From: Alkalilimnicola ehrlichii MLHE-1
GTDB taxonomy: Bacteria; Pseudomonadota; Gammaproteobacteria; Nitrococcales; Halorhodospiraceae
Direction: 5' to 3'
DNA length: 32,000 nt
Assembly (NCBI RefSeq): GCF_000014785.1
Contig: NC_008340.1
Span: 1,830,001-1,862,000 of the forward strand
The position numbers were made by a program, and so were the translations under genes. Shown piece after piece: positions 7,767-31,000 of the stretch. Below the pieces are notes generated by a model. It made no database searches. It worked only from the letters and a program-made list of their open reading frames with translations, and was not told the DNA's origin. Position 1 is the stretch's first letter. Each line of letters starts with the position of its first letter.

Positions 7767-7767
7767 T

Positions 7768-8187: not shown

Positions 8188-8200
8188 GGCGGGTGATCGC

Positions 8201-8668: not shown

Positions 8669-8749
8669 GGCGGTCTCCGGCGGTCGGGTGCGGTCACGGG
8701 GTGCCCTTCCAGCCTAGCAGGCTGCCCTGGGTCCTGGCACGCCGGCCGG

Positions 8750-9919: not shown

Positions 9920-10366
9920 TCAGCGATTCGCCGTCAGGAACCGATCAAGCTCATTGGCGAAGGCCTGGCGGTCGCGCTGGCTCATGGCCGGGGCGCCGCC
10001 CGTGTCCACCCCGCTGGCCCGCAGGGTGTCCATGAAATCGCGCATGTTCAGACGCGCCTTGATATTACTGGTGGTGTAGCGCTCACCACGGGGATTGAGG
10101 GCATGGGCCCCTTTTGCAATCACCTCGGCGGCCAGGGGGATATCGGCGGTAATCACCAGATCCCCCGGCTCGACGCAGCGGACGATTTCGTTGTCCGCCA
10201 CATCGAAACCGGGGGCCACCTGGACCCGGCGAACATACCGCGAGCGTGGCACCCGCACGGGCTGGTTGGCCACCAGGATCAGCGGCGTCCGGGTGCGCTC
10301 CGCCGCCCGGAACAGGAGCTCCTTGATGACACCCGGACAGGCATCGGCGTCCACCCAGATACTCAT
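9920..10366 (-). CDS. YaiI/YqxD family protein (UPF0178/DUF188)
   Basis: [25 protein letters not shown]...LVANQPV...[30 protein letters not shown] is characteristic of the family. The ATG at 10366 has GGAGG upstream. Confidence 0.85.
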
Positions 10367-10433
10367 CCAGAGGCCTCCTCCAGCGCCAGTCCAGGCGCTG
10401 GGTAACGGCCTGCCCGGCGGCACTGCGGCATGA

Positions 10434-11717: not shown

Positions 11718-12015
11718 AGAAAGGATGACTCCTGGGGTGCCTACCCGCACGGCCTTGCGACACAACAGCGGGGCCCGGTCCAGGCAAAAAAAAGGGGTGA
11801 ATTCGGGGAGGCCCTGTGAGGGGGTGACCGCGAACGCGTGACGCCGACCGGAGCGCGCCAACGCCGGGGACTATACCAGTTATCGCGCCTTTCCACACCC
11901 TTTCGCGTGAGATCAGTCGGCCATGGCACAGTCCGGCTGCGGCGGGATTATGGTAATAGTGAGCCTGAGGGCCCCAAAACGACCGTCGTCAGGTAAGAGC
12001 GAGGACCGATCCGGC

Positions 12016-14019: not shown

Positions 14020-14101
14020 GGGTCCTTTATCCGTCCGCCCGTGGCGGGCTACCCTGAGGCACCAACACTGCAATAGAAAACGCCGCCGGAGGAGTTATGC
14101 C

Positions 14102-15283
14102 ATGACCGATGACCGCCACCATTTCGGCACCCGAGCGCTCTGGGCCGGCGAGTCCGAGGACCCGCACTGCCGGGACGTGGCCCTGCCGATTCACCACAGT
14201 GTCACCTTCGCCTACGAGGACGTCGACGAGTGGTTCGATGTGGCACTGGACCAGAAGCCCGGCTATATCTATTCGCGCAACAAGAATCCGACCGTCCGCC
14301 CCTTGGAACTGACCATGCGGGCGCTGGAGGGGGCCGAGGAGGCCATCAGCTTCTCCACCGGCATGGCCGCCATCAGCAACACCCTCTATACCCTGCTGGC
14401 CCCCGGCGACCGGGCAGTGGCGATCAAGGATACCTACGGCGGCACCAACAAGATTTTCATCGAGTTCCTGCCCCGGGCCGGGGTGGATGTGGCGATGTGC
14501 GACACCCTCGACTTCGACGGTATCGAGGCGGAGATCCGTAAGGGCTGCAAGCTGCTCTACCTGGAAACGCCCACCAACCCGACCCTGAAGGTGGTCGACA
14601 TCGCCCGGCTCTCCCGGGTGGCCCACGAGCACGGCGCCAAGGTGATTGTGGATAACACCTTCGCCACGCCCATCAACCAGCGGCCGCTGGAACTAGGTGC
14701 AGACCTGGTGGTGTACAGTGCCACCAAGTACCTGAACGGCCACTCCGACGCCATGGGCGGTATCCTCTGCGGCCCCAAGGGGATCGTTGACCAGGTTTAC
14801 CACTACCGGGAGATCAACGGCGCCACCCTCCACGCCAACACCGCCTACATGATCCTGCGCGGGCTGAAGACCCTGGAGCTGCGTATTCAACGCCACAACG
14901 AGAACGCCCAGCGCATCGCCGAGTACTTGCACGATCACCCCAAGGTGGACCACGTCTTCTACCCGGGCCTACCGGATCACCACAACCACGCCATCGCCAA
15001 GGCGCAGATGGACGGTTACGGCGGTATGCTCAGCTTTGCGCTGACCGGCGACTTCGACCAAGTGAAGCGCTTTCTGCCGCGCCTGCACCTGGCCCACAAG
15101 GCCGCCAGCCTGGGCTCCGTTACCACCCTGGTGGGCCCTCCCAGGGTGACCAGCCACGTGGAGCTGACCGCAGAGGAGCGTCGGGCGGCGGGCATTCCGG
15201 AGAGCCTGATCCGCTACTCGGCCGGCATCGAAAACGCCGAAGACTTGATTGCCGACCTGGAGCAGGCCCTGGCCGGCCTCTGA
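14102..15283 (+). CDS. Cys/Met-metabolism PLP-dependent enzyme (cystathionine gamma-synthase / beta-lyase / sulfhydrylase family)
   Basis: 393 aa. The PLP-lysine motif is VVYSATKYLNGHSDAMGG, with YSRNKNPT and VDNTFATP also present. The ATG at 14102 has GGAGG about 8 nt upstream. The exact reaction cannot be assigned from sequence. Confidence 0.9.
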   Translation: MTDDRHHFGTRALWAGESEDPHCRDVALPIHHSVTFAYEDVDEWFDVALDQKPGYIYSRNKNPTVRPLELTMRALEGAEEAISFSTGMAAISNTLYTLLAPGDRAVAIKDTYGGTNKIFIEFLPRAGVDVAMCDTLDFDGIEAEIRKGCKLLYLETPTNPTLKVVDIARLSRVAHEHGAKVIVDNTFATPINQRPLELGADLVVYSATKYLNGHSDAMGGILCGPKGIVDQVYHYREINGATLHANTAYMILRGLKTLELRIQRHNENAQRIAEYLHDHPKVDHVFYPGLPDHHNHAIAKAQMDGYGGMLSFALTGDFDQVKRFLPRLHLAHKAASLGSVTTLVGPPRVTSHVELTAEERRAAGIPESLIRYSAGIENAEDLIADLEQALAGL

Positions 15284-15372
15284 CCCGGCAACGGGTCCGG
15301 GCGACAACCCGGCCGCGCCGTGCGGCGCCATCAGCGTCGCCGGCCCGGCGCCGGGCCCGCCCGGGTCACCGC

Positions 15373-15852
15373 TCAGTCGCGCTGGTAGGTGCCCACCAAC
15401 CGGTTCATACCGATGATCTTCGGCTCAATCCGCTCGAGCAGTTGCCAAAGGCTCAGCCCCGACGGCAGTTGCTCGTCGTCGTTGAGCGCCAGCACCCAGA
15501 AGTAGTACCGGTGCAGGCCGTGCCCCTCCGGGGGCATCGGGCCGCCATAGCCCACATTACCGAAGTCGTTCTTGCCCGGTGTGTACTGGTCCGTCCCCTC
15601 GGCCAGTTCGACCACATCGTTGGGGATGTTATAGAGCACCCAATGCACGAAACCGTAGGTGCCATTGGGGCTGACCAGCGGCGCATCGGGATCGTGGCAG
15701 ATGACCGCGAAGGCGCGAGTGCCATCGGGCACATTGGACCAGGCCAGGGCCGGCGAGACGTCCTCCCCTTCACCGGTATGGCGGGTCGGAATGGCGCCGT
15801 TCTCCTGGAACGCGCCACTGGTGAGTGTGAGATCCGACAATGCAAAGCCCAT
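15373..15852 (-). CDS. YbhB/YbcL family Raf-kinase-inhibitor-like (PEBP) protein
   Basis: 159 aa. HDPDAP, FVHWVLYNIP and GYGGPMPPEGHGLHRYYFWVLAL are PEBP signatures. GGAGG lies upstream of the ATG. Confidence 0.9.
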   Translation of the reverse strand: MGFALSDLTLTSGAFQENGAIPTRHTGEGEDVSPALAWSNVPDGTRAFAVICHDPDAPLVSPNGTYGFVHWVLYNIPNDVVELAEGTDQYTPGKNDFGNVGYGGPMPPEGHGLHRYYFWVLALNDDEQLPSGLSLWQLLERIEPKIIGMNRLVGTYQRD

Positions 15853-15929
15853 GAGCCGCCTCCTTTGGGTTATGGGTTATCGTCTGACCTGCCCTAGCCT
15901 ACCGCGACGGCTCCACCCATTGCATCCAT

Positions 15930-15958
15930 TTGGGCCGCGGCCAAAGCTCGATTATACT
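15930..15958 (+). promoter_or_regulatory. Candidate sigma-70 promoter for kaiB
   Basis: TTGGGC (15930..15935), a 17-nt spacer, then TATACT (15953..15958). It sits in the only AT-rich patch of the PEBP/kaiB divergent intergenic region, 53 nt upstream of the kaiB ATG. This is pattern match only. Confidence 0.25.
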
Positions 15959-16010
15959 AATCCGATTGTGGGATTCGTTGCGTCGGGGACTTGGTGACAG
16001 GGTGGGGACT

Positions 16011-16307
16011 ATGGCCGAACGCGCTCTATTACGGTTGTTCATCTCGGACCACACCGATCGTTCGCGCCGGGCGCTGGCGAACCTGGAGCGCATCTGCGCG
16101 GAGGAGCTGCGCGGCCGCTACGAGATTGAGATCGTCGACGTGCTGCTCGACCCCCAGGCAGCGGAGAACGAACAGGTCCTCGCAACACCCACACTGATTC
16201 GCGAGCTGCCCCGCCCGATGCGCCGCATCATCGGGGACCTCGCCGATCACGACCAAGTGCTCCGGGATCTGGAGATCCAGCCCCTGGTAGCGGGCGACGG
16301 CGATTGA
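16011..16307 (+). CDS. kaiB: KaiB-family (circadian clock protein KaiB-like, thioredoxin-like fold) protein
   Basis: 98 aa. LLRLFISDHTDRSRRALANLERICAEEL.GRYEIEIVDVLLDPQAAENEQVLATPTLIRELPRPMRRIIGDLADHDQVL is colinear with cyanobacterial KaiB (...[64 protein letters not shown].VL). I chose the ATG at 16011. The ORF-track start at 15930 lies in the promoter region. Confidence 0.9.
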   Translation: MAERALLRLFISDHTDRSRRALANLERICAEELRGRYEIEIVDVLLDPQAAENEQVLATPTLIRELPRPMRRIIGDLADHDQVLRDLEIQPLVAGDGD

Positions 16308-16371
16308 GCCGCCAGCCCAACGGCACCAGGCCACCACACTACGTCAACCCTACCGCTAATTAGACACCCGA

Positions 16372-17319
16372 ATGCAGATCAAACAGACCCCCGCCACCCC
16401 CTCCGGCCGGTCGGTGGCCGGCACCCTCTGCGGCGGCGCCGCACGGCGCTGGCTGTCCGTGCATGAGCATCAGGGCCCCGACCCTGAGCCCGGGGACAGC
16501 GAACTGTTCCGGAATATCGTGCGCTATTCCAGCGATGCCATCGTGGTCATCGACGAGGCGGGCACGGTGCGCTACGCCAACCCGGCGGCCGGACGGCTTT
16601 TCGGGCGCGCAGTGAATGCCCTGGTCGGCCGCCCGTTTGCGCTGTCGCTCGGTGGCAAGCGGGCGGAGGTGGACATCGTCCGCCCCAAGGGCGATCTGGT
16701 GGTGGCCGAAATGCACACCGCCCGCATCCCCTGGGGTGATCAGGTGGCCCAGCTTGCGATACTTCGGGACATCACTGAGTGGCGGGAGACCCTCTCGCGG
16801 CTGGACCACCTGGCCCGCTTCGATGCCCTCACCGACCTACCGAACCGCTCGGAATTACAGCGTCAACTGCGCAAGGCGCTGGCCCGGGCCAGTCGACGCA
16901 GCGCACCGCTGGCGGTGCTGTTCCTGGACCTGGACGGCTTCAAGGTGGTGAATGACACCCTGGGCCATTCCGCCGGCGACCGCCTGCTGCGGGAGGTGGC
17001 CATCCGCCTGCATGCCGCCACCCGAACCGGCGATCTCCTGGCGCGCATCGGAGGCGATGAGTTTGTCCTGGTACTTGAGGATTTCCACTGTGCCGAGGAC
17101 GCGGGCCAGGTGGCCAGGAAGCTCATCCGCACCCTGGAGCGCCCGTTCAAACTGGACGGCACCGAGCTGCGTCTGGGTGCCAGCATTGGTATCGCGCGCT
17201 ATCCGGACGATGGCAGCGGCCCGGCAGAGCTGGTCCGGGCGGCGGACCACGCCATGTACCGGGCCAAGGCCGGCGGCCGGGGCACCTACCGCTACGCCAA
17301 TGCACCCCATGAAGACTAG
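16372..17319 (+). CDS. PAS-GGDEF diguanylate cyclase
   Basis: The PAS domain is LFRNIVRYSSDAIVVIDEAGTVRYANPAA. The GGDEF domain has an intact active site RIGGDEF (17050..17064) and an I-site RTGD exactly 5 residues upstream. There is no obvious SD at the ATG, so the start is uncertain (alternative GTG at 16459). Confidence 0.85.
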   Translation: MQIKQTPATPSGRSVAGTLCGGAARRWLSVHEHQGPDPEPGDSELFRNIVRYSSDAIVVIDEAGTVRYANPAAGRLFGRAVNALVGRPFALSLGGKRAEVDIVRPKGDLVVAEMHTARIPWGDQVAQLAILRDITEWRETLSRLDHLARFDALTDLPNRSELQRQLRKALARASRRSAPLAVLFLDLDGFKVVNDTLGHSAGDRLLREVAIRLHAATRTGDLLARIGGDEFVLVLEDFHCAEDAGQVARKLIRTLERPFKLDGTELRLGASIGIARYPDDGSGPAELVRAADHAMYRAKAGGRGTYRYANAPHED

Positions 17320-17341
17320 CCCCGGGCCGGACACGGGACCG

Positions 17342-17375
17342 GCAAGCCGTTGTCGGCTTGCGGCTGGGGTTTTCC
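17342..17375 (+). terminator. Candidate intrinsic terminator after the first GGDEF gene
   Basis: Perfect 8-bp stem GCAAGCCG/CGGCTTGC (17342..17349 and 17354..17361) with loop TTGT, 23 nt after the TAG stop. A TTTT run follows at 17370..17373, but it is 8 nt from the stem, further than canonical. Confidence 0.4.
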
Positions 17376-17466
17376 ACATTAGACTTTCTGAATAGCCCAT
17401 ACTGCCCGCAGGCCGCTCCGAAGGTGTCCAACACCCGTATTCTCACTCTGGTTGCTCCCGGTACTG

Positions 17467-19365
17467 ATGGCCAGCACCCTGCTCGTTATCGGGCTGATCG
17501 CCACGGTCCGGTTCAGGGCCCGTCACGACGCTGGCCGTGACGTGGGCAACCAACCCCAGGCACTTCCCGATGAACCCGCGCTCTTTCAGAGACTTGCCGG
17601 GAACACCTCGGCCGGACTCTTCCTGGCCCGGGCAGATCGCCTGATCGCGGTCAACCCCGCGCTCTGCCGTATCCTGCGGTGCCCGCCAGAGCAGCTGACC
17701 GGGGCTGAATGGCGGCCGCTGATCCATTCCGACCACGCCGATGAGGTCGAGACCCACGTCAGCGCCCGCCTGCGCGGGCAACCGGCCAGCCCACTGCACC
17801 CGATCAGGGTCCAGCGGGGTGATGGCACCACCCGCTGGGTGGAGCTGAGCCTGGAACCGGTGGCCCTGGGCGGGGATCCCGCCATGGTTGGCACCCTCGT
17901 CGACATTGACCGCCACTGCGCGCTACAACAAGAGCTCCTGCTGAGTGAGAGGAAATACCGACAACTCGTTGAAAACGTAAATGATATAATCTATACATTG
18001 ACACCGGATGGACGCCTGAGTTACGTCTCCCCCAACTGGCCGGAGCTCCTCGGCCACCCGGTCGATCAGGTCATCGGCCGGCCCATTGCCCGGTTCGTGC
18101 ACCCGGACGACCTCCCCGGCTGCGAGGAGTTTCTCAGGCGCCTGTTCCTCACCGGCAAGAAGCAAAGCGGCATTGAATACCGGGTGCGGCACAGTGACGG
18201 TCACTGGCGCTGGCACACCGCCAATGCTTCACCCATCACCGGCGACGACGGCACCGTCATCGCCTTTGTGGGTATCGCCCGCGATATCACCGCCAGGAAG
18301 GGCATGGAGGCCGAACTGGTCTACCAGCTTCGGTTTAACGAGCTGGTCGCTGAACTCTCCACCCGGTTCGTGCGCAGCCCTGCCGAGGAGACCGATGCCC
18401 GGATCGACGATCTGCTTCGGCGGGCGGGCACCCTGTTCAATGCGGATCGGGCCTACCTCTACCTCTTCTCCGACGATGGCGAGACCATGAGCAACACCCA
18501 CGAGTGGTGTGCGCCCGCGGTCCCCTCGCTGTTGGAGGACAGTCAGCGGATGCCCGTCGCCCGCTACCCGTGGTGGCAGCGACACATGACGGCGCTGCGC
18601 GACCAGCACCAGGTGTTGTTCATCAATGACGTCTCAGCGCTGCCCGCCGAAGCAGCGGCGGAGCGGGCGCTGCTGGAGGGGCAGCAGGTGCGCACCCTGG
18701 TCTGTGCCCCGGTGGCGACGCCGGATCGGGTCATCGGTTTTTTGGGGTTCGACTCGCTGCGTCCCAAGGAGTGGCGGAAGGATCAGGGCGACCTGTTGGT
18801 CGTCCTCGGCAATCTCCTGGCCGCGGCACTGGTGCGACGGCAACTGGAGTTGGATCTGCGCAACCTGTCGGTGACCGACCCGCTCACCGGCCTGTTCAAC
18901 CGGCGCTTCCTGCGGGCGCGCCTGCTGGCGCTCATTGAGGAGTATGAGCGCCACGGACACCGGTTCTGTGTCAGCCTGGTGGACCTGGATCACTTCAAGG
19001 CCCTGAACGACCGTCATGGCCATCTGGCCGGTGACCGGATCCTGCAGGGCTTCGCCAACATCCTGCGGGACAATCACCGGGTGTTCGACATCGTCGCCCG
19101 CTACGGCGGTGAGGAGTTCGTGGTGATCCTGGTGGGAACCGAAATCGGGCAGGCGCGACGGGTGACTCGCCGCGCCCTGACAACCACCCGCAACCATGAC
19201 TTCCGTTTCAACGAGACCCCGCTGTCGATCACCGCCAGCGCCGGTCTCGCTGATATCGCGGAGTTGCCCGAAGACCACCGCACCGTGGAGCATCTCCTGC
19301 AACTCGCGGACCACCGCCTCTATCGGGCCAAGCAGCAGGGCCGCGACTGCCTGGTGGCCGACTAG
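17467..19365 (+). CDS. Membrane-anchored PAS-PAS-GAF-GGDEF diguanylate cyclase
   Basis: N-terminal TM helix (MASTLLVIGLIATVRF), two PAS domains (second: YRQLVENVNDIIYTLTPDGRLSYVSPNW...GIARDITARK), a GAF domain (...LFNADRAYLYLFSDDG...VIGFLGFDS) and a GGDEF domain. The active site is RYGGEEF (19105..19119), with I-site RVFD 5 residues upstream. The start is ATG 17467 or TTG 17452. Confidence 0.9.
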   Translation: MASTLLVIGLIATVRFRARHDAGRDVGNQPQALPDEPALFQRLAGNTSAGLFLARADRLIAVNPALCRILRCPPEQLTGAEWRPLIHSDHADEVETHVSARLRGQPASPLHPIRVQRGDGTTRWVELSLEPVALGGDPAMVGTLVDIDRHCALQQELLLSERKYRQLVENVNDIIYTLTPDGRLSYVSPNWPELLGHPVDQVIGRPIARFVHPDDLPGCEEFLRRLFLTGKKQSGIEYRVRHSDGHWRWHTANASPITGDDGTVIAFVGIARDITARKGMEAELVYQLRFNELVAELSTRFVRSPAEETDARIDDLLRRAGTLFNADRAYLYLFSDDGETMSNTHEWCAPAVPSLLEDSQRMPVARYPWWQRHMTALRDQHQVLFINDVSALPAEAAAERALLEGQQVRTLVCAPVATPDRVIGFLGFDSLRPKEWRKDQGDLLVVLGNLLAAALVRRQLELDLRNLSVTDPLTGLFNRRFLRARLLALIEEYERHGHRFCVSLVDLDHFKALNDRHGHLAGDRILQGFANILRDNHRVFDIVARYGGEEFVVILVGTEIGQARRVTRRALTTTRNHDFRFNETPLSITASAGLADIAELPEDHRTVEHLLQLADHRLYRAKQQGRDCLVAD

Positions 19366-19445
19366 GGGTTATCACGCATTACCCGCGCCCCGGCCGCCCC
19401 GTCATACTGTCAGCCACAGACCATGGCGAATCCCGGGGGAGCGTA

Positions 19446-21125
19446 GTGGCGCGTCCACTGAACCACACCATCACCGCGCGCCCCGGCCGGCCGTCCACCG
19501 CCGGCTGGGCCCGCCTGATGCTGCTCAGCGGCTCATTGGTCGGCCTCTACCTCCTGGTTGCCGTCTGGGGGTTTGCCTTCACCCCCGACCAATACGGAAT
19601 CCCGCTGGTCTGGCCGGCCACCGGCGTGGGGCTGGCCTTTGTCTTCCTCTACGGCTATCGCCTGGTGCCCGCCGTCGGGCTGGCGGCGGCGCTGGTCGGT
19701 GTCTGGTTCACCGGCGATCTCGTCGCCCCGCTGGAACAGGCCTTCACGGTGGTAGTCACGATGCTGGCCACGGCCTTGGGCACGGCAATCCTGCGCTACT
19801 GCCGCTTCGATCCCAGGATGGAACGGCTGCGCGACCTGGGCCTGCTGCTAGCGGCCGGCGGCGGCGTCAGCTCCGGGCTCGCCGCCACCGTCGGGGCCTA
19901 CAGCCTGGCGGCCAGTCCCGGCCCCCTGAGCCTCGCCCAAACCTGGTGGGTCTGCTGGAGCGCGGACCTGATGGGGCTGGTACTGATCTCGCCGTTCCTG
20001 TTCACCCTGCTGGGCGGACGCCTGGTCATGCCCTCAGGCGCGGACCTGCGCATTGGAATGATGCTGGTCACCGCCACCCTGGCCACCGGCGCGGTGGCTT
20101 ACCTGTTGGCGCTCGACCTGACCCTGGCGTTGCCCCTCTCCTACGCCGTCTTCCCGCTCGTCATGTATGCAGCATTGCGCTGCCCGGCGCCCATCACCAG
20201 TGGCCTCATCCTGGTGTTCGGGGGGCTGGCGCTGACCGCCACCGGGCTGGGTCACGGCCCCTACGCCGCGCTGGGGCTGGAGCGGAGCCTGTTGGCACTC
20301 AATGCCCAGTTGGGGTTGCTGGTCCTCACCGGCCTTTCGCTGACCGCGATCAGCGCGGAACGGGAGGCCGCTGAAAGTCGGGCGCGCCAACACCTGGAGG
20401 ATCTGGCACGCGCCGGGCGCATCAACCTGATGGGTCAGCTCTCGACCACTCTCGCCCACGAACTCAACCAACCGCTGTGCGCGCTGAGCACCTACGCCCA
20501 GGCCAGCCGCCGGCTGTTGGCCCGGGGTGATACCGAAGGCCTCGGCACCGCCCTGGAGCGACTGGAACAGAACGCCCACCGAGCCGCCCATACGGTCCGG
20601 CAAATCCGCGACTTCGCCGCGCGGCAGGACCTGGCGCATCAGGTGGTGGCCCCCGCCCACCTGATTGCCGGGGTGGAACGCCTGATGGCGCCCGAGTTCA
20701 CGCGCCGCGGGATCCATCTGAAGGTCAACGTCCAGCCCGGCCTGCCCCCGATACGCATCGCCCCCATGCAGATCGAGCAGGTGCTGGTCAACCTGCTGCG
20801 CAACGCGACGGAAGCCCTCGCCGGCCGCGCCGACGGGCGGGTGCGCCTGGCGGTCTACCGCCGCCGGCGGGAGTTGGTGCTGGAGGTCATCGACAACGGC
20901 CCAGGCATCCCGCCGGAGCGGCTGTCGCTGCTGTTCGAGCCCTTTACCAGCTGGAAGCGGGGCGGCATGGGACTGGGCCTTGCCCTTTCCCGTTCCTTGG
21001 TCGAATCTCATGGGGGCACATTCACCGCCCGCAACGGCAACGCCGGCGGGGCGGAATTCCGTTTCACTCTGCCATTGGAGGACGACCATGGCGACACCGC
21101 GACCTACGGTACATCTGGTGGATGA
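19446..21125 (+). CDS. MASE1-domain sensor histidine kinase
   Basis: A polytopic N-terminal membrane domain of ~300 aa resembles MASE1 (about 8 helices, ...PLVWPATGVGLAFVFLYG...). It is followed by the H-box STTLAHELNQPL (His codon 20457..20459), N-box LLRNATEAL, G1 DNGPGIP and G2 GGMGLGLALS. The start is GTG 19446 or ATG 19518. Confidence 0.85.
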   Translation: MARPLNHTITARPGRPSTAGWARLMLLSGSLVGLYLLVAVWGFAFTPDQYGIPLVWPATGVGLAFVFLYGYRLVPAVGLAAALVGVWFTGDLVAPLEQAFTVVVTMLATALGTAILRYCRFDPRMERLRDLGLLLAAGGGVSSGLAATVGAYSLAASPGPLSLAQTWWVCWSADLMGLVLISPFLFTLLGGRLVMPSGADLRIGMMLVTATLATGAVAYLLALDLTLALPLSYAVFPLVMYAALRCPAPITSGLILVFGGLALTATGLGHGPYAALGLERSLLALNAQLGLLVLTGLSLTAISAEREAAESRARQHLEDLARAGRINLMGQLSTTLAHELNQPLCALSTYAQASRRLLARGDTEGLGTALERLEQNAHRAAHTVRQIRDFAARQDLAHQVVAPAHLIAGVERLMAPEFTRRGIHLKVNVQPGLPPIRIAPMQIEQVLVNLLRNATEALAGRADGRVRLAVYRRRRELVLEVIDNGPGIPPERLSLLFEPFTSWKRGGMGLGLALSRSLVESHGGTFTARNGNAGGAEFRFTLPLEDDHGDTATYGTSGG

Positions 21126-21723
21126 CGATGAGGACATTCGCGAGGCCATCACCTTCCTATTGGTCGCCGAGGGGATCATGGTGCGCCCCTATGAGGATGC
21201 CGGCGGTCTGCTCGAGCGGCTGACCCCCAAGCACACCGGCTGCCTGATCCTCGACGTGCGGTTGCCGGACATGGATGGCCTCACCCTGCAACGGGAGCTG
21301 CGTCAGCGCGGTATCGACCTGCCGGTGATCTTTATCACCGGCCATGGCGACATCCCCATGGCGGTCCGTGCCGTCAACGACGGCGCGCTGGACTTTCTGG
21401 AGAAGCCCTTCCGTGACGATGCCCTGCTCGAGGCGGTGGAACAGGCCCTAGAGGTGGAGGCGGCCCACCGCGAGGACCAGCAACGCCGCGCAGAGATCGA
21501 ACAGCGCCTGGCGCAACTGACGCCGCGCGAGCGCCAGGTGTTGGAAGGGCTGCTGGACGGCAAACCGAACAAGCTCATCGCACGGGACCTGGATGTCAGC
21601 GTACGCACGGTGGAGATCCACCGGGGCAACCTGATGCAGAAAATGCAGGCCCGGAGCGCCTCCCACTTGGCCCGGCTCGCCCTGGTTTGTGACGCCTACC
21701 GGGAGCGACTGCCCAACGAGTGA
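21088..21723 (+). CDS. FixJ/LuxR-family response regulator (REC + LuxR-type HTH)
   Basis: The receiver domain is VHLVDDDEDIREAI...CLILDVRLPDMDG...VIFITGHGD. The HTH is LTPRERQVLEGLLDGKPNKLIARDLDVSVRTVEIHRGNLMQKM. The ATG at 21088 has GGAGGA 5 nt upstream. It overlaps the kinase 3' end by 38 nt. Confidence 0.9.
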   Translation: MATPRPTVHLVDDDEDIREAITFLLVAEGIMVRPYEDAGGLLERLTPKHTGCLILDVRLPDMDGLTLQRELRQRGIDLPVIFITGHGDIPMAVRAVNDGALDFLEKPFRDDALLEAVEQALEVEAAHREDQQRRAEIEQRLAQLTPRERQVLEGLLDGKPNKLIARDLDVSVRTVEIHRGNLMQKMQARSASHLARLALVCDAYRERLPNE

Positions 21724-21866
21724 CCGGGCACCCCGGCGAGGTCCGGCGCGGGTGCGTAATACCCCGTATTCCTGTGGTTGCGGCATTCCTGCATGCTGGC
21801 AGGCAAGTCCCCTGCCGGCCGAGCCCCGGCCGGGGCCACTCATCGCGCAGCCCAGGAAGGCCGAGC

Positions 21867-24341
21867 ATGCATACGGGCAACCCAGCGATCGCCCATCCGG
21901 CGCACACAGCCCCCCGAGGATGCCGGGTATGCCGGCGCATCACCGCTGTGGTCTTCGTGTCCATTATCGCCATTGAGGCCATTATCCTCTTCCCTTCCTA
22001 TCGGAACCACGAGGCGACACTGCTGGCGAACATTGAAGCCCAAGGGCTCGCCGCAGCCCGAGCGGGCCTGCCCTCCGGTCCTCACGACCGGCCGGCAATG
22101 GTCCATCTCCTGGACAACACCCCGATCGCCGGTATCGAGTGGCGGGAAGAGGAGGGACGCGCATCTTCTGTAGGTGCGCCCCTTGCGGCGACCGATGCCC
22201 GGCCGGAGGGTCGCCTGCCTGAGCCCCGCGAAGGGGGCCGGAACGGGGCCCTGATGGTCCACTGGACCCCGGAACAGCTCAACCGCGACTACGGCGTCCG
22301 GGCACGGCTGGACACGACCGGGATTGACGCCGAGCTGCGCGCCTTCCTGCTGCGCATCGCCGCCCTCGTCCTGCTGATCGCCTTGTTCGTCACCGCCGTC
22401 ACGCTGGCGGTGCTGGACCGGCTGGTATTCCGCCCCTCGCGCCGTTTGTACCGCCACATGTTGGCCGCTGGCGCCGACCCCGACCACCCCCTGGCCTACC
22501 GCCTCAACAGCAACAGGGACGATGAGCTGGGGGCCGCCAGCCAGGCCTTTGACCACATGCTGGAACGCCTGGCCAGGGACCGCACCGCACTCCGCCAGCG
22601 GGAACGGGACCTGCAGACCATGAACACCACTCTGGAGGCCCAGGTGACCAGGCGGACCGCCGCCCTCACCGAAGCCAATCACCGACTGCAACAGGAGGCG
22701 AAGGAGCGCCAGGCCGCTGAACAACAGGCCCGACGCCTGGCCCGGTTCCCCGATGAGAACAGCAACCCGGTGCTGCGGGTGAACCCCGATGGGGAGATCC
22801 TTTACGCCAACCCGGCCGCAATCCCCCTGCTCCGCCACTGGGAGGACGAACAACGGCTGCCCGCCGACTGGCAGCCCCGGCTCACGGCAGCTACGACGGC
22901 CGGCCGGGTCACGTACGAAGAGGTCGCTGTCCAGGGCCGCTGGTACCTGATGGCCATCAATCCGATCCCTGAAGAGGGTTATCTCAACCTCTACGGGGTC
23001 GATATCACCGACCGCAAGCGCTTTGAGGCGGAGCTGGCAAAGCGCAATACCGAGGACGCGCTGACCGGTCTGCCCAACCGTCAGGTGTTCCGTGACCGGG
23101 TCGGTCAGGCCCTCCGTGAGAGGGCGTCGGACCGCGGTCGGGCCGCCGTACTGCTCATCCGGATCGAGAACATGGACCTCATAAACGGCCTGGGAGGCCA
23201 CCAGGCCGGCGATCTCGTGCTTACCGCGCTGGCCCGACGCCTACGGCAAGCAGTTGCCCCCGATCAGACCCTGGCCCGTCTGGGCGAGGAGGTGTTCGCC
23301 CTGCTCATCCCCAAGGTGGCCTCGGTGGATGAGCTGGCACGGCTGTCCGAGCAACTGCTTGGGGTCCTCAACAGCAGTGTCACCTCCCAGGGCCATGAGT
23401 TCGCCAGTCGCGCTTCTGGTGGCTGGGCCATCTACCCCCATGACGGTGCCGACACCGCCACCCTGCTCCGGAATGCCCAGTTGGCCGCCCACCGGGCCAG
23501 CCGCCAGGGCGAGCGCCAGCGCTACCTGTTCTTCGTGGAGGGGCTGAACGAGGCGGTGGAGAGCCGCCAGCGGCGGCTGCGCGAACTCCGGAACGCGATC
23601 GATGACGGGGGGCTGACCCTCTGGTTTCAGCCCCAGCTCAGCAGCGACCGGAGGAGGCTGAGCGGCCTGGAGGCACTGGTCCGTTGGCCCCATCCCAGCG
23701 ATGGCCTCCTCGCCCCCGATGCCTTCATCCCGCTCGCGGAGGAGCATGACCTGATCATCCCCCTGGGCGAGTGGGTGCTCAAGGCTGCCTGCAGGCAACT
23801 CCACGAATGGCAGCAGTTGGGCCTGCCCGTACCACGACTGGCGGTCAACCTCGGGGCCCGTCACCTGCTCGACAGCCGCCTGCCGGGGTTCGTCGCGGAT
23901 CTGCTGCGCGACTACGAGCTGCCCGGTCACTGCCTGGAGGTGGAGGTGACGGAAAGCACGGTGATGGAGGACATCACCCGGAGCGAGGAGGTCCTCTCCC
24001 GGCTGGTGCGCCTGGGGGTCCAGGTGGCGGTGGATGACTTTGGTACCGGCCACTCCTCCCTGGCCTATCTCAAACGCCTGCCGATTCAACGCATCAAGAT
24101 CGACCGCTCCTTCATCGCCGGGCTCCCCGACGATGCCCAGGACCGGGCCATCTGCCGGACCATCGCCGACCTCAGCCACAGCCTGGGCTTGCAGGTCGTC
24201 GCCGAGGGGGTGGAGACAACCGCTCAGGCAGCGGCCCTGCAGCAGATGGGTTGCAATGACCTGCAGGGCTTCCTCCTTGCCCGCCCCGGCCCGATCACCC
24301 GGATCACCCATTGGCTGCGCCACGAGGCCCCCAGACCATGA
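21867..24341 (+). CDS. TM-periplasmic loop-TM-HAMP-PAS-GGDEF(degenerate)-EAL c-di-GMP phosphodiesterase
   Basis: Two TM helices (ITAVVFVSIIAIEAIILF and LLRIAALVLLIALFVTAVTLAVL) bracket a loop of ~110 aa. A HAMP domain, coiled coil and PAS-like domain (FPDENSNPVLRVNPDGEILYANPAA) follow. In the GGDEF domain the signature reads GEEVF (23283..23297) and there is no RxxD I-site. The EAL domain has intact motifs EALVRW (23670..), DDFGTGHSSLAYLKRLP, KIDRSFI, VVAEGVET and QGFLLARP. I prefer the ATG at 21867 (GGAAGG upstream). The ORF track starts at GTG 21720, overlapping the regulator stop. Confidence 0.85.
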   Translation: MHTGNPAIAHPAHTAPRGCRVCRRITAVVFVSIIAIEAIILFPSYRNHEATLLANIEAQGLAAARAGLPSGPHDRPAMVHLLDNTPIAGIEWREEEGRASSVGAPLAATDARPEGRLPEPREGGRNGALMVHWTPEQLNRDYGVRARLDTTGIDAELRAFLLRIAALVLLIALFVTAVTLAVLDRLVFRPSRRLYRHMLAAGADPDHPLAYRLNSNRDDELGAASQAFDHMLERLARDRTALRQRERDLQTMNTTLEAQVTRRTAALTEANHRLQQEAKERQAAEQQARRLARFPDENSNPVLRVNPDGEILYANPAAIPLLRHWEDEQRLPADWQPRLTAATTAGRVTYEEVAVQGRWYLMAINPIPEEGYLNLYGVDITDRKRFEAELAKRNTEDALTGLPNRQVFRDRVGQALRERASDRGRAAVLLIRIENMDLINGLGGHQAGDLVLTALARRLRQAVAPDQTLARLGEEVFALLIPKVASVDELARLSEQLLGVLNSSVTSQGHEFASRASGGWAIYPHDGADTATLLRNAQLAAHRASRQGERQRYLFFVEGLNEAVESRQRRLRELRNAIDDGGLTLWFQPQLSSDRRRLSGLEALVRWPHPSDGLLAPDAFIPLAEEHDLIIPLGEWVLKAACRQLHEWQQLGLPVPRLAVNLGARHLLDSRLPGFVADLLRDYELPGHCLEVEVTESTVMEDITRSEEVLSRLVRLGVQVAVDDFGTGHSSLAYLKRLPIQRIKIDRSFIAGLPDDAQDRAICRTIADLSHSLGLQVVAEGVETTAQAAALQQMGCNDLQGFLLARPGPITRITHWLRHEAPRP

Positions 24342-25738
24342 GCGATGGCTTCACCCACCTCCCCATGACCGGCCTGGTGATCGCCCTGGCGGCGGTGGCG
24401 CTGGTTACCTTGCTGATCGCCCCCCGGGTCAGTACCGCCAACGGGTTCTTCCGCGGTTTCGCCGACGCGGGCCAGCCGCCCGGCGTGCTCACGCTCACCC
24501 TCTCCCAGGTCACCACCTGGATCTTTGCCCGCTCATTGCTCAATGCGGCCATCCTGGGTTATTTCTTTGGCATCGCCGGTGTGCTCGCCTACACCGCCTA
24601 CTACGGCTCCTTTGTCACCGGCTGGCTGATCATCGATCGCCTTCGCTTCCGCTACGGCGCCTCCAATCTGCAGGGTTTCATGAGGGCCCAGTATGGCGGG
24701 GTGGGGACCTTCTGCCTGAACGGACTCCTGGCGCTGCGCCTGGTCAGCGAGGTGTTCGCCAACCTGCTGGTCGTCGGGATCGTCTTCGGCGCCGCCGGCA
24801 GCGCCGGCAACACCACCGCCATGCTGTCGGTGGCCGCCCTGACCCTGGTCTATTCCCTCACCGGCGGGCTCCGGGCGTCGCTGCGAACCGATGTCCTGCA
24901 GATGGTGCTTTTGATCGGTCTGCTCGCCGCCCTCGTGGTGGTCATGCTCCTGCATCCGCTCTTTGACCCCGGGGCGCTGGCGGTCAGCAGCCCCGGGATC
25001 GACAACCCGGGCTGGATCCTGCTGGCGGTCGCGGGTCTCCAGGTGCTCAGCTACCCCATGCATGACCCCGTCATGATGGACCGCGGGTTCCTCGCCGACC
25101 GCCGCACCACACGGCGCAGTTTTCTGCACGCCTTCTGGCTCTCGGCGGTGTGTATCCTGGCCTTCGGGCTGCTGGGGGTTTTCGCGGGCCTGCATCGCCT
25201 GGAGGGCGAAACCGTGCTGCTGACGCTGGACCGGCTGATGGGTACCCCCGTGATGTTTCTCCTGGCGGTGGCGCTGGTCCTGTCGGCCGCCTCGACCCTG
25301 GACTCGACCTTCTCCAGCGCGGCCAAACTCAGCATCGCCGACATGGGACTGGCCCGGACCACACCCCGCAACGGCCGGATCGCAATGCTCCTGTTCTGCC
25401 TGGGCGGGCTGCTACTGGTGCTGTTCGGCACCGACGACCTGTTCGCCGCCGTGGCCGTCAGTGGAACCGCGTCGCTGGCGCTCACACCGGTCATCGCCTT
25501 CTCCCTACTGGCCGGCTGGCGGCTTAGCCGGGCCAGTCTGCTGACCTCCTTTACGCTGGCCTTCACGGGCGCTGTCGTCTACTTCCTGGAGACCTCCGGG
25601 CATATCGACCTGCTGACCCCCCTGACCGGGCTGGAGCACGACTACAGTAAGCTGCTGGCGATCACGGTCACCATCCTGGTTCTTGCCACCGCGGCGGCCT
25701 GGCTTGGCCGCCAGGGCCGCATGGAGGTCGTGAAATGA
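24338..25738 (+). CDS. Sodium:solute symporter (SSS) family-like transporter, substrate unknown
   Basis: 466 aa with about 12-13 hydrophobic segments. The SSS-type signature is LVYSLTGGLRASLRTDVLQ. The ATG at 24338 overlaps the EAL gene stop (ATGA). Confidence 0.75.
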   Translation: MSDGFTHLPMTGLVIALAAVALVTLLIAPRVSTANGFFRGFADAGQPPGVLTLTLSQVTTWIFARSLLNAAILGYFFGIAGVLAYTAYYGSFVTGWLIIDRLRFRYGASNLQGFMRAQYGGVGTFCLNGLLALRLVSEVFANLLVVGIVFGAAGSAGNTTAMLSVAALTLVYSLTGGLRASLRTDVLQMVLLIGLLAALVVVMLLHPLFDPGALAVSSPGIDNPGWILLAVAGLQVLSYPMHDPVMMDRGFLADRRTTRRSFLHAFWLSAVCILAFGLLGVFAGLHRLEGETVLLTLDRLMGTPVMFLLAVALVLSAASTLDSTFSSAAKLSIADMGLARTTPRNGRIAMLLFCLGGLLLVLFGTDDLFAAVAVSGTASLALTPVIAFSLLAGWRLSRASLLTSFTLAFTGAVVYFLETSGHIDLLTPLTGLEHDYSKLLAITVTILVLATAAAWLGRQGRMEVVK

Positions 25739-26709
25739 GTCAGCCCGGCCGCCTTTGCCCGCTGCATTACCAGACCGGGCCCGACGCCCTACGGACAGCA
25801 CCGCTGTACCGCTGCCCCACGGTCTACCTGGTGGGCGGGCTTTACGGCAACGATGCGGCGCTGGCCGCGATTCAGGCGTTGGCCCACCGGGAGCGGGCCG
25901 CCGGCCACCCGGAGCCGCTGTTGGTGTTCAACGGCGACTTCCACTGGCTGGATGCCGACCCGGCGGTATTCCGGCACATTCAGGAGGCGGTGCTCAATCA
26001 GGCCGCCATTCTCGGCAATGTCGAGGCCGAACTGGCCCAACCCACACCGGGCATCGGCTGCGGATGCGCCTATCCGGAAACGGTGGACGATGCGACGGTC
26101 ATGCACTCCAACCGGATCATGGCACGGCTGCAGCGGATGGTGGCGGAGACGCCGGCACTGCACGATGTCACCCGCCAACTGTCGGGCCTGCCCCGTCAGA
26201 TCAGGTTGGCGGTCGGCGATCTCCGCGTCGGCGTGATCCACGGCGATCCGGAGTCGCTCGCCGGCTGGCGCCTGGCCCTGGAGCAAATGCCGGCCCCGGG
26301 GCGCACCACGTCCCGCATCCGGCGCTGGTTCGAGGTCAGTGAGGTGGACCTCTTCGCCTGCAGCCACACCTGCCTGCCCTTCGCCCAGCGCTTCACCTGG
26401 GAGCGGCGGCAGGCCCTGATCTTCAACAACGGCGCGGCGGGACTCCCGAACTTCCGCGGTGACCGCCGGGGCGTGATCACCCGTATTGCCGAGACCCCGG
26501 CCCCGGTTCCGGCGCTGTATGGCGGTGTGCTGCGGGGGGTTCACTGCGATGCGGTGCCGGTCGCCTACGACACGGCCGCCTGGGCCCGCCGGTTCCGCGC
26601 GATCTGGCCCGAGGGGTCCGCGGCCTGCCACAACTATGCCCGCCGGCTCGCCCACGGCACCGGGCTGACACCGCAGGCGGCAAACCGGCTGGGCGACCGC
26701 CGGCCCTAG
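25735..26709 (+). CDS. Divergent metallophosphoesterase-fold (calcineurin-like) protein with substituted metal-ligand motifs
   Basis: 324 aa. The order and spacing of blocks fit the MPP fold: VYLVGGLYGN (motif I position), LLVFNGDFHW (GD motif), ILGNVEAEL (GNHE position), VGVIHGDPES, LFACSHTCLPF (GHTH position) and IFNNGAAG. GGAGG lies 7 nt upstream. The ATG overlaps the transporter stop (ATGA). The fold call is from motif pattern only. Confidence 0.55.
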   Translation: MSQPGRLCPLHYQTGPDALRTAPLYRCPTVYLVGGLYGNDAALAAIQALAHRERAAGHPEPLLVFNGDFHWLDADPAVFRHIQEAVLNQAAILGNVEAELAQPTPGIGCGCAYPETVDDATVMHSNRIMARLQRMVAETPALHDVTRQLSGLPRQIRLAVGDLRVGVIHGDPESLAGWRLALEQMPAPGRTTSRIRRWFEVSEVDLFACSHTCLPFAQRFTWERRQALIFNNGAAGLPNFRGDRRGVITRIAETPAPVPALYGGVLRGVHCDAVPVAYDTAAWARRFRAIWPEGSAACHNYARRLAHGTGLTPQAANRLGDRRP

Positions 26710-28084: not shown

Positions 28085-31000
28085 TCAGGCCACCTCCTTC
28101 CAGGCCGCCTTCAAGCGCTTCTCTGACACCTTTTCCCGGGCCCCCACCTCTTGCGCAAAGAGCGAGACGCGGTACTCCTCCAGCAGCCAGCGGAAGCGCT
28201 CTAGGGCAGGGTCGGGTTTGCCTTGGGCCTCCCGGCGACTCTGGCGCTCACGCCAGCGCTCCCACCAGGGCCGGATACTGCGCAGAGGCGTACGATCCCG
28301 GCCCGGGTCCTGCCGCAGCTTTTCCACCCGCCGCTCCAGGGCCCGCAGGTAGCGGGGCAACTCGGCCAGGTACTCCGGCGGTGTCTGCTGGAGAAAGCCC
28401 GGGTAGACCAGGCATTCCAAGTGCTCCTGCAGGTCCTTGAGGCTGTCCATCAGTGCCAGGGCGTTGAACTGCTTCAGGGCTTTGCGGATGGCCTGGTAGC
28501 GTCCCAGCACCTCCTCCAGCCCCTCCGCCAGCCGTTGGGCGTTCTCCACCAGTCGCGGCCGGCCCCGTTCCAGGCGCTGCCGGAAGGCCGCCTCCGTGCG
28601 CGGCGGGGCGTCGCCGAGGAAGGTCCGGTCGACGGCGGCATGGACCAGCTCCCGCTTCAGATCCTCGTCGGACCCGAGACCGCGGTAGGCCAGACGCAGC
28701 CGGTCCAGGCCCGGCAGCCCCCGGCGGAGATAGCGCACCTGCTGGGGCAGCGCCAGCATATACAGGCGGCGTACGCCGGCCCGGTGCTGGCGCTCCGCCT
28801 CATCGGGACTGTCAGCCAGGGTGAGGCGGACCGAGCTCTCCTCGTCCACCAGACACGGGTATCCGCGGATGGTCAGCCCGTTACGCCCGATCTCAACGGC
28901 CTCCGGCAGATCGCCGAAGTCCCATGTCGTGATGCCCTCGCGGGTCCATTCCGAGGCCCCGCCGCCGGAGGCGGAGAAGCTCTCACTGGCCTGATCCCCC
29001 AGCCCCTGCTGGAGGGCCGCCAAGTCACTGCCCGTACGCAGGGTGTTGCCCTGTTCATCGAGCACGCGGTAGTGCATGCGCAGGTGCTCGGGCAGGGCCA
29101 CCGCATCCAGCGCACCCGGGGGAATGTCCACGCCGGTCATCCGCTTGAGCTGGCGCGCCACCGCATCGGTCAGGGACCCCTCGCCATGGGGAATGGCCTC
29201 GAGCACGGCGCGGGCAAAATCGGGCGCCGGGACGAAGTTGCGCCGGATGGCCTTAGGCAGCCCCCGGATCAGGGCCACCACTTTTTCGTGCACCAGGCCG
29301 GGGACCAGCCACTCGAACGGCTCCGGGCGCAACTGGTTGAGGGCCGCCACCGGCACCCGCGCCACCACCCCGTCCAGCTCGCTGCCCGGCTCCAGGTGGT
29401 ACTCCAGCGGCAGCTCCAAGCCGCCGGGCAGGCGCAGTCGGTCCGGGTAGGCCTCACCGGAGACCGGATCGGCGTCGTCACGCATCAGCGCCTCACGGCT
29501 CATGTGCAGGCGCTTTGGATCATCCCGGCTGACCTCCCCGAGCCAGCGCTCGAAGGCGGCCCCGCTGTAGATGCCCTCGGGGATACGCTGGTCGTAGAAC
29601 CGGAAGCGGGTCTCCTCGTCCACCAGCACATCCCGGCGCCGGGCCTTGGCCTCCAGGCGCTCGATCTCCTCGATCAGCCGCCGGTTGTGCTCCCAGAACG
29701 GGGCCCGGGTGCGGTACTCGCCCTGAACCAGCGCCTCCCGGATGAAGATGGCCCGGGCCACCGGCGGGTCTATGGGGCCGTAGTTGACCCGGCGCTGACT
29801 GGCGAGCACCAGACCGTAGAGGGTGACCTTCTCGTACGCGGCCACCTGGGCGGGTTTCTTCTCCCAGTGGGGCTCGGCATAGCTGCGACTGACCAGGTGG
29901 GCCGCGGTCTGCTCGATCCACTCCGGCTTCACCTCCGCCGCCGTCCGGGCGAACAGCCGACTGGTCTCGACGAACTCCGCGGCCACGATCCACTTGGGGT
30001 TACGCTTGAACTGGCCGGAACCTGGGAAGATCATCAGCTTCACCCCGCGCGGACCGAGATACTCCTTGTTTTCATGGTGTTGTGCGATATTGCTGACCAA
30101 TCCCGCGAGCAGCGCGCGGTGGAGGGCCTCATAGTGGGTATCCAGCCACTCGGCGCACTGCTCCGTGGTCACGGTGTGCGGGCGGGCCAGCGGCGAGGCG
30201 GCCGCCCCTTCGCTCCCGGTGGAGCGCAGGGGCCGGCCCGGCCCGCCCCCTGCGCCCTTGCGGTCCGCGCCGCCGGACAGGCCACTCACCAGCTCTCGGA
30301 TCTGGCGGTGGATATCCAGCCACTCGCGCATCCGGTGCGGGCTCAGGAAGCGCTCGCGACACCATTGGCGAAGCTGGCGGTTACTGAGCCGGCGCTTCTG
30401 GCGGTGGTAGTCCTGCCAGAGCAGCACCAGCGAGAGGAAGTCACTCTTCCCGTGCCGCCACTGGGCGTGCGCCTGATCGGCGGCCTGCTGGGCGTCCAGG
30501 GGCCGCTCACGCGGGTCCTGGACCGAGAGTGCGGCGGCGATCACCAGCACCTCGTCCAGCACCCCCTGCTCGCGGGCAGCCAGCAACATCCGCCCTACCG
30601 GCGGGTCCAGCGGCAGTCTTGCCAGTTGGCGTCCAAGGGCGGTGAGTTCGCGATCCTCCGTCACCGCGCCGAGTTCGTGCAGCAGTTTGAACCCATCGTT
30701 GACGAACTTGTGCTCCGGCGGCTCGACGAAGGGAAACCGCTGGATATCCCCCAGGCCCAGGGCCTTCATCTGCAGGATGACGGCGGCCAGGTTGGTGCGC
30801 TGGATCTCGGGGTCGGTGAACGCCGAACGGCCCGCAAAGTCCTCCTCGCTGTACAGGCGGATGGCCACCCCCGGGGCCTCCCGGCCGCAGCGCCCGGCCC
30901 GCTGATTGGCGGAGGCCTGGCTGATCGGTTCGATGGGCAGACGCGAGACCTTGGTCCGGTAACTGTAGCGGTTAATGCGGGCGTAGCCGGAGTCCACTAC

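Follow-up and report, generated by a model that had tools for sequence, protein, structure and literature searches.

KaiB is the textbook example of a metamorphic protein, and to our knowledge all of its functions assigned to date depend on KaiC. In Synechococcus elongatus, fold-switched KaiB is bound by KidA, a multi-PAS GGDEF-EAL protein, via its N-terminal PAS domains, and the same study proposed that PAS-Kai association is general outside cyanobacteria, including for PAS genes that lie beside kai genes (PMC9478674). The Ramlibacter paper of De Luca et al. in 2011 (PMC3164672) had already described clusters of kaiC and kaiB with a kinase or GGDEF/EAL gene behind them. Here, we analysed a 32-kb stretch of the Alkalilimnicola ehrlichii MLHE-1 genome (hereafter the window), in which a kaiB gene without an adjoining kaiC is followed on the same strand by two diguanylate cyclase genes, which we call dgc1 and dgc2, and we propose that KaiB acts there as a partner of Dgc1. 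An earlier note on this DNA had taken KaiB to be known only as a KaiC-binding protein and a link to cyclic di-GMP (c-di-GMP) to be undescribed, a view that was outdated given the two papers cited above.

Like KidA, the product of dgc1 is a PAS-domain c-di-GMP enzyme coupled to KaiB, physically in the case of KidA and by our proposal in the case of Dgc1. Unlike Dgc1, KidA combines four PAS domains with GGDEF and EAL domains, is not encoded beside kaiB and acts in a complete KaiABC oscillator, whereas Dgc1 has one short PAS and a GGDEF domain and is encoded directly 3' of kaiB, at a locus with neither kaiC nor kaiA. The combination of kaiB with a PAS output enzyme is shared with the non-cyanobacterial kaiBC operons of Ramlibacter, Legionella, Rhodopseudomonas palustris and Rhodobacter sphaeroides (the KaiBC hourglass, PDB 8FWJ), and in Thioalkalivibrio and Halorhodospira, which belong to the same family as A. 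ehrlichii, the order is exactly kaiB, kaiC, then a PAS-domain output enzyme. In contrast to these operons, the window locus, and possibly the whole genome, lacks kaiC while retaining kaiB and the output enzyme under selection. As with the N-terminal KaiB-like domain of SasA and the pseudo-receiver of CikA, a dedicated docking module would link the Kai complex to a signalling enzyme; unlike in SasA and CikA, the proposed module is a PAS domain carried by the enzyme and contacted by KaiB as a separate protein, and not a KaiB-like fusion or a receiver-like domain. Coupling of KaiB to a PAS-cyclase (KidA), the placement of kaiBC beside PAS-kinase/GGDEF genes and the suggested generality of PAS-Kai contacts are already published. 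New are a lineage in which kaiC is missing from such an operon and kaiB and the cyclase are kept under purifying selection, a discrete kai-linked PAS subfamily (PAS_A), and recurrent pairs of kaiB and a PAS_A gene without an adjoining kaiC.

kaiB is present without kaiC at the locus

The reading of positions 16011..16307 as a full-length KaiB homologue held up: the match to PF07689 reaches 84.9 bits against a cut-off of 27 and covers profile positions 1-78 of 82. The protein is 100% identical to the NCBI entry 'circadian clock KaiB family protein [Alkalilimnicola ehrlichii MLHE-1]', and solved KaiB chains in the PDB match it at E 1e-20 to 1e-23. Translation starts at the ATG at 16011, position 15930 being merely a TTG start of the open frame. 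The window KaiB misses the strict KaiB equivalog cut-offs of NCBIfam (NF006798, 82.1 versus 110; TIGR02654, 78.8 versus 145.3); the kaiBC-linked KaiB of Thioalkalivibrio scores 109.4 on NF006798, at the threshold, and 105.6 on TIGR02654.

Among the 30 large open reading frames (ORFs) of the window, none matched the KaiC family PF06745, and tblastn with two KaiC types against the whole 32 kb, including the spacer between kaiB and dgc1, gave a best E of 0.14 and no kaiC remnant. Both searches bear out the earlier statement that no KaiC-like ORF lies in the window. We also carried out the neighbourhood survey that the earlier note had called for, using the window KaiB as query and one genome per species. 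This gave 60 loci with KaiBs of 39-58% identity, a sample that included no Alkalilimnicola, Alkalispirillum or Thioalkalivibrio and came from a collection that missed the source genome's own KaiB peptides. Two loci were cut off upstream and one was a partial match; in all of the 57 evaluable loci, kaiC directly adjoins kaiB. The order is either kaiB then kaiC, with a KaiC 51-64% identical to that of Thioalkalivibrio, or kaiC then kaiB (28-40%). A GGDEF-EAL gene lies just downstream in 13 loci of the latter type, from Betaproteobacteria and Legionella, in agreement with De Luca et al. 2011 (PMC3164672). At one locus (L023, about 8280..9700) the KaiC adjoining kaiB appeared as three tblastn pieces in different frames, reflecting either a pseudogene or insertion-deletion errors in a long-read metagenome-assembled genome (MAG).

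The 120 top-ranking relatives of KaiC from Thioalkalivibrio extend down to 64% identity and name Thioalkalivibrio itself and four Halorhodospira species (75-80%), and none of them is an Alkalilimnicola or Alkalispirillum protein. A second KaiB from A. ehrlichii is likewise absent from the KaiB matches listed. The literature searched yielded nothing usable on KaiC or circadian functions in Alkalilimnicola or on KaiC in Thioalkalivibrio, and the text parts of the Schmelling 2017 supplements list neither genus. On this indirect and, being a lack of matches, weak evidence, A. ehrlichii probably has no cognate KaiC.

The conserved unit comprises a PEBP gene, kaiB, dgc1 and dgc2

Two further loci lack kaiC beside kaiB, one on a Logan contig (L008; KaiB 87% identical) and one in Alkalispirillum mobile (L001; 77%). 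Both share with the window a divergent PEBP gene, followed on the other side by kaiB, a PAS-GGDEF gene and a PAS-PAS-GAF-GGDEF gene, dgc2 lying 3' of dgc1 in each. The adjacency of kaiB and a GGDEF gene, on whose conservation the earlier note had made its proposal depend, is kept in all three kaiC-less relatives, and dgc1 is 68% identical to its Alkalispirillum orthologue. The PEBP gene occupies the same position in L001, L002 and L008 and is not next to kaiB in Thioalkalivibrio, making it a conserved neighbour of kaiB within the kaiC-less clade only. Downstream of dgc2, L008 continues like the window with genes for a MASE1 kinase, a regulator and an EAL protein, whereas in A. mobile hrpA directly follows dgc2, and the MASE1 kinase, FixJ-type regulator and HAMP-GGDEF-EAL genes are missing. 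Since Alkalispirillum keeps the core without the kinase, regulator and EAL part, the conserved unit is the PEBP gene with kaiB, dgc1 and dgc2, and not the 10.7-kb block that begins with kaiB.

In the nearest relatives, kaiC lies between kaiB and the cyclase gene. The Thioalkalivibrio KaiB is the closest outside the clade (63%) and is encoded in a set of three overlapping genes, kaiB, kaiC and a PAS-PAS-GGDEF gene; Halorhodospira halophila has kaiB, kaiC and a multi-PAS-GAF-GGDEF gene. Three more close homologues stand in the arrangements kaiB-kaiC-PAS-GAF-kinase, kaiB-kaiC-PAS...GGDEF-EAL and kaiC-kaiB-PAS-kinase. Dgc1 gives a two-part match to the Thioalkalivibrio cyclase, with GGDEF domains about 51% identical, and because its PAS domain shares 49% identity with the N-terminal-most PAS of that cyclase, the window resembles the Thioalkalivibrio operon minus kaiC. 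The cyclase linked to kaiBC in Halorhodospira was rejected as an orthologue of Dgc1 or Dgc2, the match being confined to GGDEF at 33-35% identity, with no PAS_A. The three kaiC-less KaiBs group together in a neighbour-joining tree, as the sister clade of the Thioalkalivibrio and Halorhodospira KaiBs, which makes the window KaiB an orthologue of operon-linked KaiB and deletion of kaiC more parsimonious than its translocation. In its simplest reading, the window looks like an ancestral kaiB-kaiC-cyclase operon from which kaiC has been deleted.

The orphan kaiB is under strong purifying selection

Across the three kaiC-less lineages the kaiB frame is intact and of equal length, and the ratio of nonsynonymous to synonymous substitution rates (dN/dS) is 0.05-0.12, with synonymous divergence (dS) saturated at 1.3-2.7. 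Corresponding ratios are 0.27-0.30 for dgc1, 0.18-0.24 for dgc2 and 0.11 for the housekeeping neighbour metC. The orphan kaiB is under strong purifying selection and is not decaying in MLHE-1.

The fold-switching C-terminal half of KaiB is almost unchanged. On this protein we use residue numbers that we take to be those of S. elongatus KaiB. The kaiC-less clade carries G15->D, where 176 of 182 other KaiBs have G, and S80->A (S in 161 of 182), and each of these changes also occurs singly in kaiC-linked KaiBs, so that neither is proof of lost KaiC binding. At position 88 the clade has, in place of G, a D that none of the 182 other KaiBs shows there, and it also carries K57->Q and D90->E. K57, G88 and D90 were proposed as fold-switch regulators in S. 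elongatus KaiB (PMC5520375), and in the KidA study G88A together with D90R locked KaiB in its active fold (PMC9478674); none of the three residues is kept in the window KaiB, which has Q, D and E. Isomerisation of three prolines limits KaiB fold switching (PMC11665890), and these correspond to window P60, P67 and P69 (T. elongatus P63, P70 and P72), at alignment positions where 178-182 of 182 KaiBs have proline.

An AlphaFold2 model of the window KaiB (predicted local distance difference test score 84) adopts the thioredoxin-like, partner-binding fold. Its best structural matches in Foldseek are Legionella KaiB (4KUN, template modelling score 0.83-0.92) and fold-switched KaiB bound to the CI domain of KaiC (5JWR/5JWO, 0.77-0.89). 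A redox thioredoxin function was considered for KaiB and rejected: there is no CxxC motif, just the family-conserved Cys29.

PAS_A is a kai-linked domain at the N-terminus of Dgc1

A single PAS is the sole sensory domain of Dgc1, which lacks EAL; from this PAS (residues 41-140) we defined the PAS_A subfamily. The active-site GG(D/E)EF motif and the RxxD I-site are intact in both cyclases, as RTGD and GGDEF in Dgc1 (RTGDLLARIGGDEF) and as RxxD and GGEEF in Dgc2 (RVFDIVARYGGEEF), and from these motifs Dgc1 looks catalytically competent.

When used as a tblastn query, PAS_A matched many kai loci, each at one place, the N-terminus of the signalling gene beside kaiBC, and left the other PAS domains of the window and of the matched kai loci unmatched. 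These relatives span four phyla at 36-49% identity and are fused to different outputs: GGDEF in Thioalkalivibrio (49%), a kinase, where visible, in six Gemmatimonadaceae MAGs (39-44%), a kinase in Sphaerisporangium (40%) and GGDEF-EAL in Legionella (36%). In the reverse test, an alignment of eleven PAS_A domains (A1) was searched against metagenome contigs and the 80 best loci were kept. A kai gene adjoins PAS_A in 53 of the 80, and in 42 of the 51 with a judgeable flank. Both kaiB and kaiC lie beside PAS_A at 35 loci, KaiC is visible at the contig end at 3, and at 11 kaiB adjoins on a contig too short to show kaiC; 4 have a same-strand kaiB directly upstream and at least 1.5 kb more upstream with no kaiC, 9 lack any kai gene although 2.5 kb or more of upstream sequence is available, and at 18 the flank is insufficient to judge.

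Independent metagenome PAS_A domains score 80-149 bits on the A1 profile, compared with at most 33 bits for other PAS domains of the same loci, with nothing between; the 141 bits of the window PAS_A arise by construction, as it is a member of the seed alignment. The profile finds PAS_A in three further proteins linked to kaiB->kaiC operons, and none in the Halorhodospira cyclase or in one kaiC->kaiB locus. Of 16 loci examined, 15 have PAS_A next to a kaiB->kaiC operon; 12 of these are distinct, since four loci from Thioalkalivibrio share an identical KaiB. PAS_A has no dedicated model in NCBIfam or Pfam, and the nearest solved PAS domains, those of WalK and FixL, are weak matches. Judged by these profile searches, PAS_A is a domain type of its own that goes with kaiB->kaiC systems, and its linkage to kai genes together with its fusion to varying outputs is as expected for a docking domain.

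Pairs of kaiB and a PAS_A gene also occur elsewhere without an adjoining kaiC, as far as the contigs reach. Locus L099 has the window's two-gene module, kaiB then PAS_A-GGDEF, in an unrelated context behind a citrate synthase gene and a BadF-type ATPase gene on the minus strand. In L126 and L128, a cyanophycin-synthetase-like gene on the minus strand precedes kaiB and a PAS_A-HisKA-HATPase gene, and the roughly 5 kb to each side contain no kaiC; L098 holds another kaiB->PAS_A-output pair with no kaiC in the available flank. At two further loci, L121 (1..2914) and L151 (2658..8705), a canonical kaiB-kaiC(-PAS_A-kinase) operon directly adjoins a second, divergent kaiB that is paired with a PAS_A gene of its own. 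In some organisms, two KaiB/PAS_A pairs thus share a single KaiC.

kaiB, dgc1 and dgc2 are disrupted together in a sister strain

A sister strain is represented by a complete chromosome of 3,194,001 bp (GCA_049200435.1; CP184336.1; locus L149) whose flanks are 99.0-99.6% identical to the window. Its kaiB carries an internal deletion of about 130 nucleotides (nt) that causes a frameshift (window 16058->16189), its dgc1 lacks 16331->17152 and its dgc2 lacks most of its length, with 5-11 nt of microhomology at each deletion junction. Its PEBP gene is undamaged. L149 extends only 100 nt into the MASE1 kinase gene, and this initial part aligns without deletion. This joint loss is consistent with kaiB, dgc1 and dgc2 forming one functional unit, and we give it moderate weight.

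Compared with window 7635..19315, L149 shows about ten separate deletions clustered in 12 kb, all of them at microhomologies of 5-11 nt. They remove RF-1-domain, CopD and methyltransferase genes and the PF10136 recombinase gene, and they take away a piece of kaiB and the greater part of both dgc1 and dgc2. The neighbouring 7.6 kb are colinear at 99.6%, and identity falls to about 96.5% over 14.0-17.3 kb.

Neighbouring genes and transcript boundaries

The window has a G+C content of about 68%. A Pfam scan covered 30 of its 32 candidate genes, leaving out the shadow ORFs 9920..10537 and 28223..31783, and returned the neighbours of kaiB as the earlier note had described them: a divergent PEBP gene, a PAS-GGDEF gene starting 64 nt past the kaiB stop, and then the domain architectures listed in Table 1.

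Table 1. Features at and around kaiB, with positions given in the window
Feature	Position	Strand	Evidence or remark
PEBP/YbhB-family gene	15373..15852	-	Pfam PBP 143 bits; NCBIfam TIGR00481 102 bits; divergent from kaiB
kaiB, 98 amino acids (aa)	16011..16307	+	Pfam PF07689 84.9 bits; no kaiC adjoining
dgc1, PAS_A-GGDEF diguanylate cyclase, 315 aa	16372..17319	+	GGDEF 165.9 bits
PAS_A domain, Dgc1 aa 41-140	16492..16791	+	Short PAS subtype linked to kai genes
Hairpin and short U run, possible weak intrinsic terminator	17319..17375	+	3' of dgc1
dgc2, PAS-PAS-GAF-GGDEF cyclase	17452..19365	+	Pfam; GGDEF 141 bits
MASE1-HisKA-HATPase kinase	19446..21125	+	Pfam
REC-GerE (FixJ-type) regulator	ORF 20980..21723, likely start 21088	+	Pfam
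HAMP-(weak PAS)-GGDEF*-EAL protein	21720..24341	+	Pfam; GGDEF degenerate
SSF-like membrane protein	24311..25738	+	Pfam
324-aa protein, no Pfam family above threshold	25735..26709	+	Last gene of the neighbouring block

The earlier note had placed a candidate terminator at 17342. A hairpin does exist after dgc1 (17319..17370; -31.5 kcal/mol, with a short U run next to it), but it is not a strong terminator: its z-score is -2.04, 7 of 200 shuffled sequences fold as well, and a consensus terminator scanner made no call on it. Further downstream, gene ends overlap between the kinase and regulator genes (21088..21125, 38 nt), the EAL and SSF-like genes (24311..24341, 31 nt) and the SSF-like gene and the gene at 25735..26709 (25735..25738, 4 nt), which suggests two translationally coupled sub-operons apart from kaiB-dgc1, one of the kinase and regulator genes and one of the three final genes. 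In the HAMP-GGDEF-EAL protein the GGDEF motif is degenerate (GEEVF) and the EALVR and DDFGTG motifs are intact. The best Pfam match of the 25735..26709 protein is a weak one to Metallophos_2 (19.5 bits versus a cut-off of 27), and its gene is also kept 3' of the SSF-like gene in L008.

Upstream of the PEBP gene, the window encodes a 698-aa PF10136 'site-specific recombinase' (11923..14019; 796 bits). Because this gene is missing in the sister strain GCA_049200435.1 and replaced in Alkalispirillum by HDOD and REC-PAS-GGDEF-EAL genes, the interval between the DEAD helicase gene and metC is variable.

Discussion

We favour, at a probability of roughly 0.55, the reading that the locus is a remnant of an Ectothiorhodospiraceae kaiB-kaiC-(PAS-cyclase) operon, and that KaiB works there via the PAS_A domain of Dgc1 without a cis-encoded KaiC. 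The idea that KaiB serves as a protein-protein adaptor survives in part. The most plausible role of KaiB is that of a binding partner for a diguanylate cyclase, a view supported by the conserved adjacency of kaiB and a PAS-GGDEF gene and by the linkage of PAS_A to kai genes across phyla; gating of a kinase or receiver, which had also been suggested, finds no such support, and a PAS domain is the likelier docking surface.

By this reading, kaiC would have been removed in the Alkalilimnicola/Alkalispirillum lineage, with KaiB and its output enzyme kept under strong selection. Thioredoxin-like, fold-switched KaiB would dock on the N-terminal PAS_A of Dgc1 and thereby set its activity and local c-di-GMP synthesis. 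We infer this binding, the direction of its effect and its independence of KaiC from the KidA precedent and gene linkage. Dgc2 would be a co-inherited second cyclase, perhaps also controlled by KaiB. In KaiC-bearing relatives, the phosphorylation or ATPase state of KaiC may decide how much KaiB is free for PAS_A, giving a timed or energy-dependent output. At the window locus the KaiB-PAS_A contact would form without a cis-encoded KaiC, and the signal would be either the abundance of KaiB or its own slow fold equilibrium. If G88->D favours the active fold, KaiB could act as a permanent subunit that signals through its abundance; if not, the input may be its fold equilibrium itself, which is slow and sensitive to temperature.

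Several observations weigh against this reading. The absence of kaiC applies to the 32-kb window, and a kaiC may lie elsewhere in the A. ehrlichii genome. The kaiB-dgc1-dgc2 module is dispensable, at least in the sister strain, and the argument from joint loss is weakened because that strain also has deletions in unrelated nearby genes (window 7.6-14 kb). Pairs of kaiB and PAS_A can work within KaiC systems, since those of L121 and L151 adjoin kaiBC. AlphaFold2 with a full alignment favours the fold-switched state for KaiB generally, and the model of the window protein therefore tells little about its fold equilibrium.

The first of these points leads to the alternative of a split locus, in which a functional kaiC sits elsewhere in the chromosome, KaiB cycles on it and Dgc1 is a PAS output enzyme. 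Such an arrangement would fit the generalisation in the literature that KaiB is found only with full-length KaiC, the coexistence of paralogous kaiB-PAS_A pairs with kaiBC in L121 and L151, and the almost unchanged C-terminal half of KaiB, which looks as if KaiC binding were still selected. We nevertheless consider it unlikely. Adjacency of the two genes is unbroken in the evaluable loci (57/57), the 120 best KaiC relatives include Halorhodospira of the same family at 75-80% and no Alkalilimnicola or Alkalispirillum, and no second A. ehrlichii KaiB is among the matches listed. In addition, the tree favours a simple deletion over translocation, and the clade combines the otherwise unseen G88->D with the rare G15->D and S80->A.

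It has also been proposed that KaiB leads a single 10.7-kb unit and, as the precedents of CikA and SasA would suggest, gates not only the cyclases but also the MASE1 kinase or the FixJ receiver. All genes of the block do lie on the same strand with short gaps, and their order is repeated in the second Alkalilimnicola-like contig, L008. This proposal is nonetheless quite improbable, given that Alkalispirillum keeps the PEBP gene with kaiB-dgc1-dgc2 and has none of the kinase, regulator and EAL genes, that a hairpin stands 3' of dgc1, that the sister strain lost kaiB, dgc1 and dgc2 with the start of the kinase gene undisturbed, and that neither the kinase nor the regulator contains a PAS_A or KaiB-like domain. 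That kaiB is a decaying relic which merely persists after the loss of kaiC is scarcely credible. The frameshifted kaiB and the loss of most of dgc1 and dgc2 in the sister strain would agree with decay, as would KaiB scores under the equivalog cut-offs, yet the selection analysis contradicts it: dN/dS is 0.05-0.12 over three lineages even with saturated dS, all three keep an unbroken frame of equal length, and KaiB is better conserved than its neighbours.

The preferred reading, KaiB acting on Dgc1 through PAS_A, can be extended to a more general one, in which KaiB is a KaiC-independent regulatory subunit of PAS_A enzymes in a cell without any KaiC and PAS_A is a general KaiB-docking domain outside cyanobacteria. 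We offer this tentatively and would place it below even odds. Under it, the Alkalilimnicola/Alkalispirillum lineage and the orphan pairs of kaiB and PAS_A in metagenomes would be natural examples of a metamorphic clock protein that by itself switches c-di-GMP or two-component output. A lineage that gave up kaiC and retained kaiB under strong selection next to a PAS-cyclase would show that the KaiB-PAS contact found with KidA is old, widespread and able to stand alone. Interest in the locus would rise considerably if the genome truly lacks KaiC. The locus provides a two-protein system, of 98 and 315 aa, for asking how Kai timers reach their outputs outside cyanobacteria, and PAS_A provides a sequence handle by which genomes and metagenomes can be searched for the output enzymes that belong to kaiB->kaiC-type systems.

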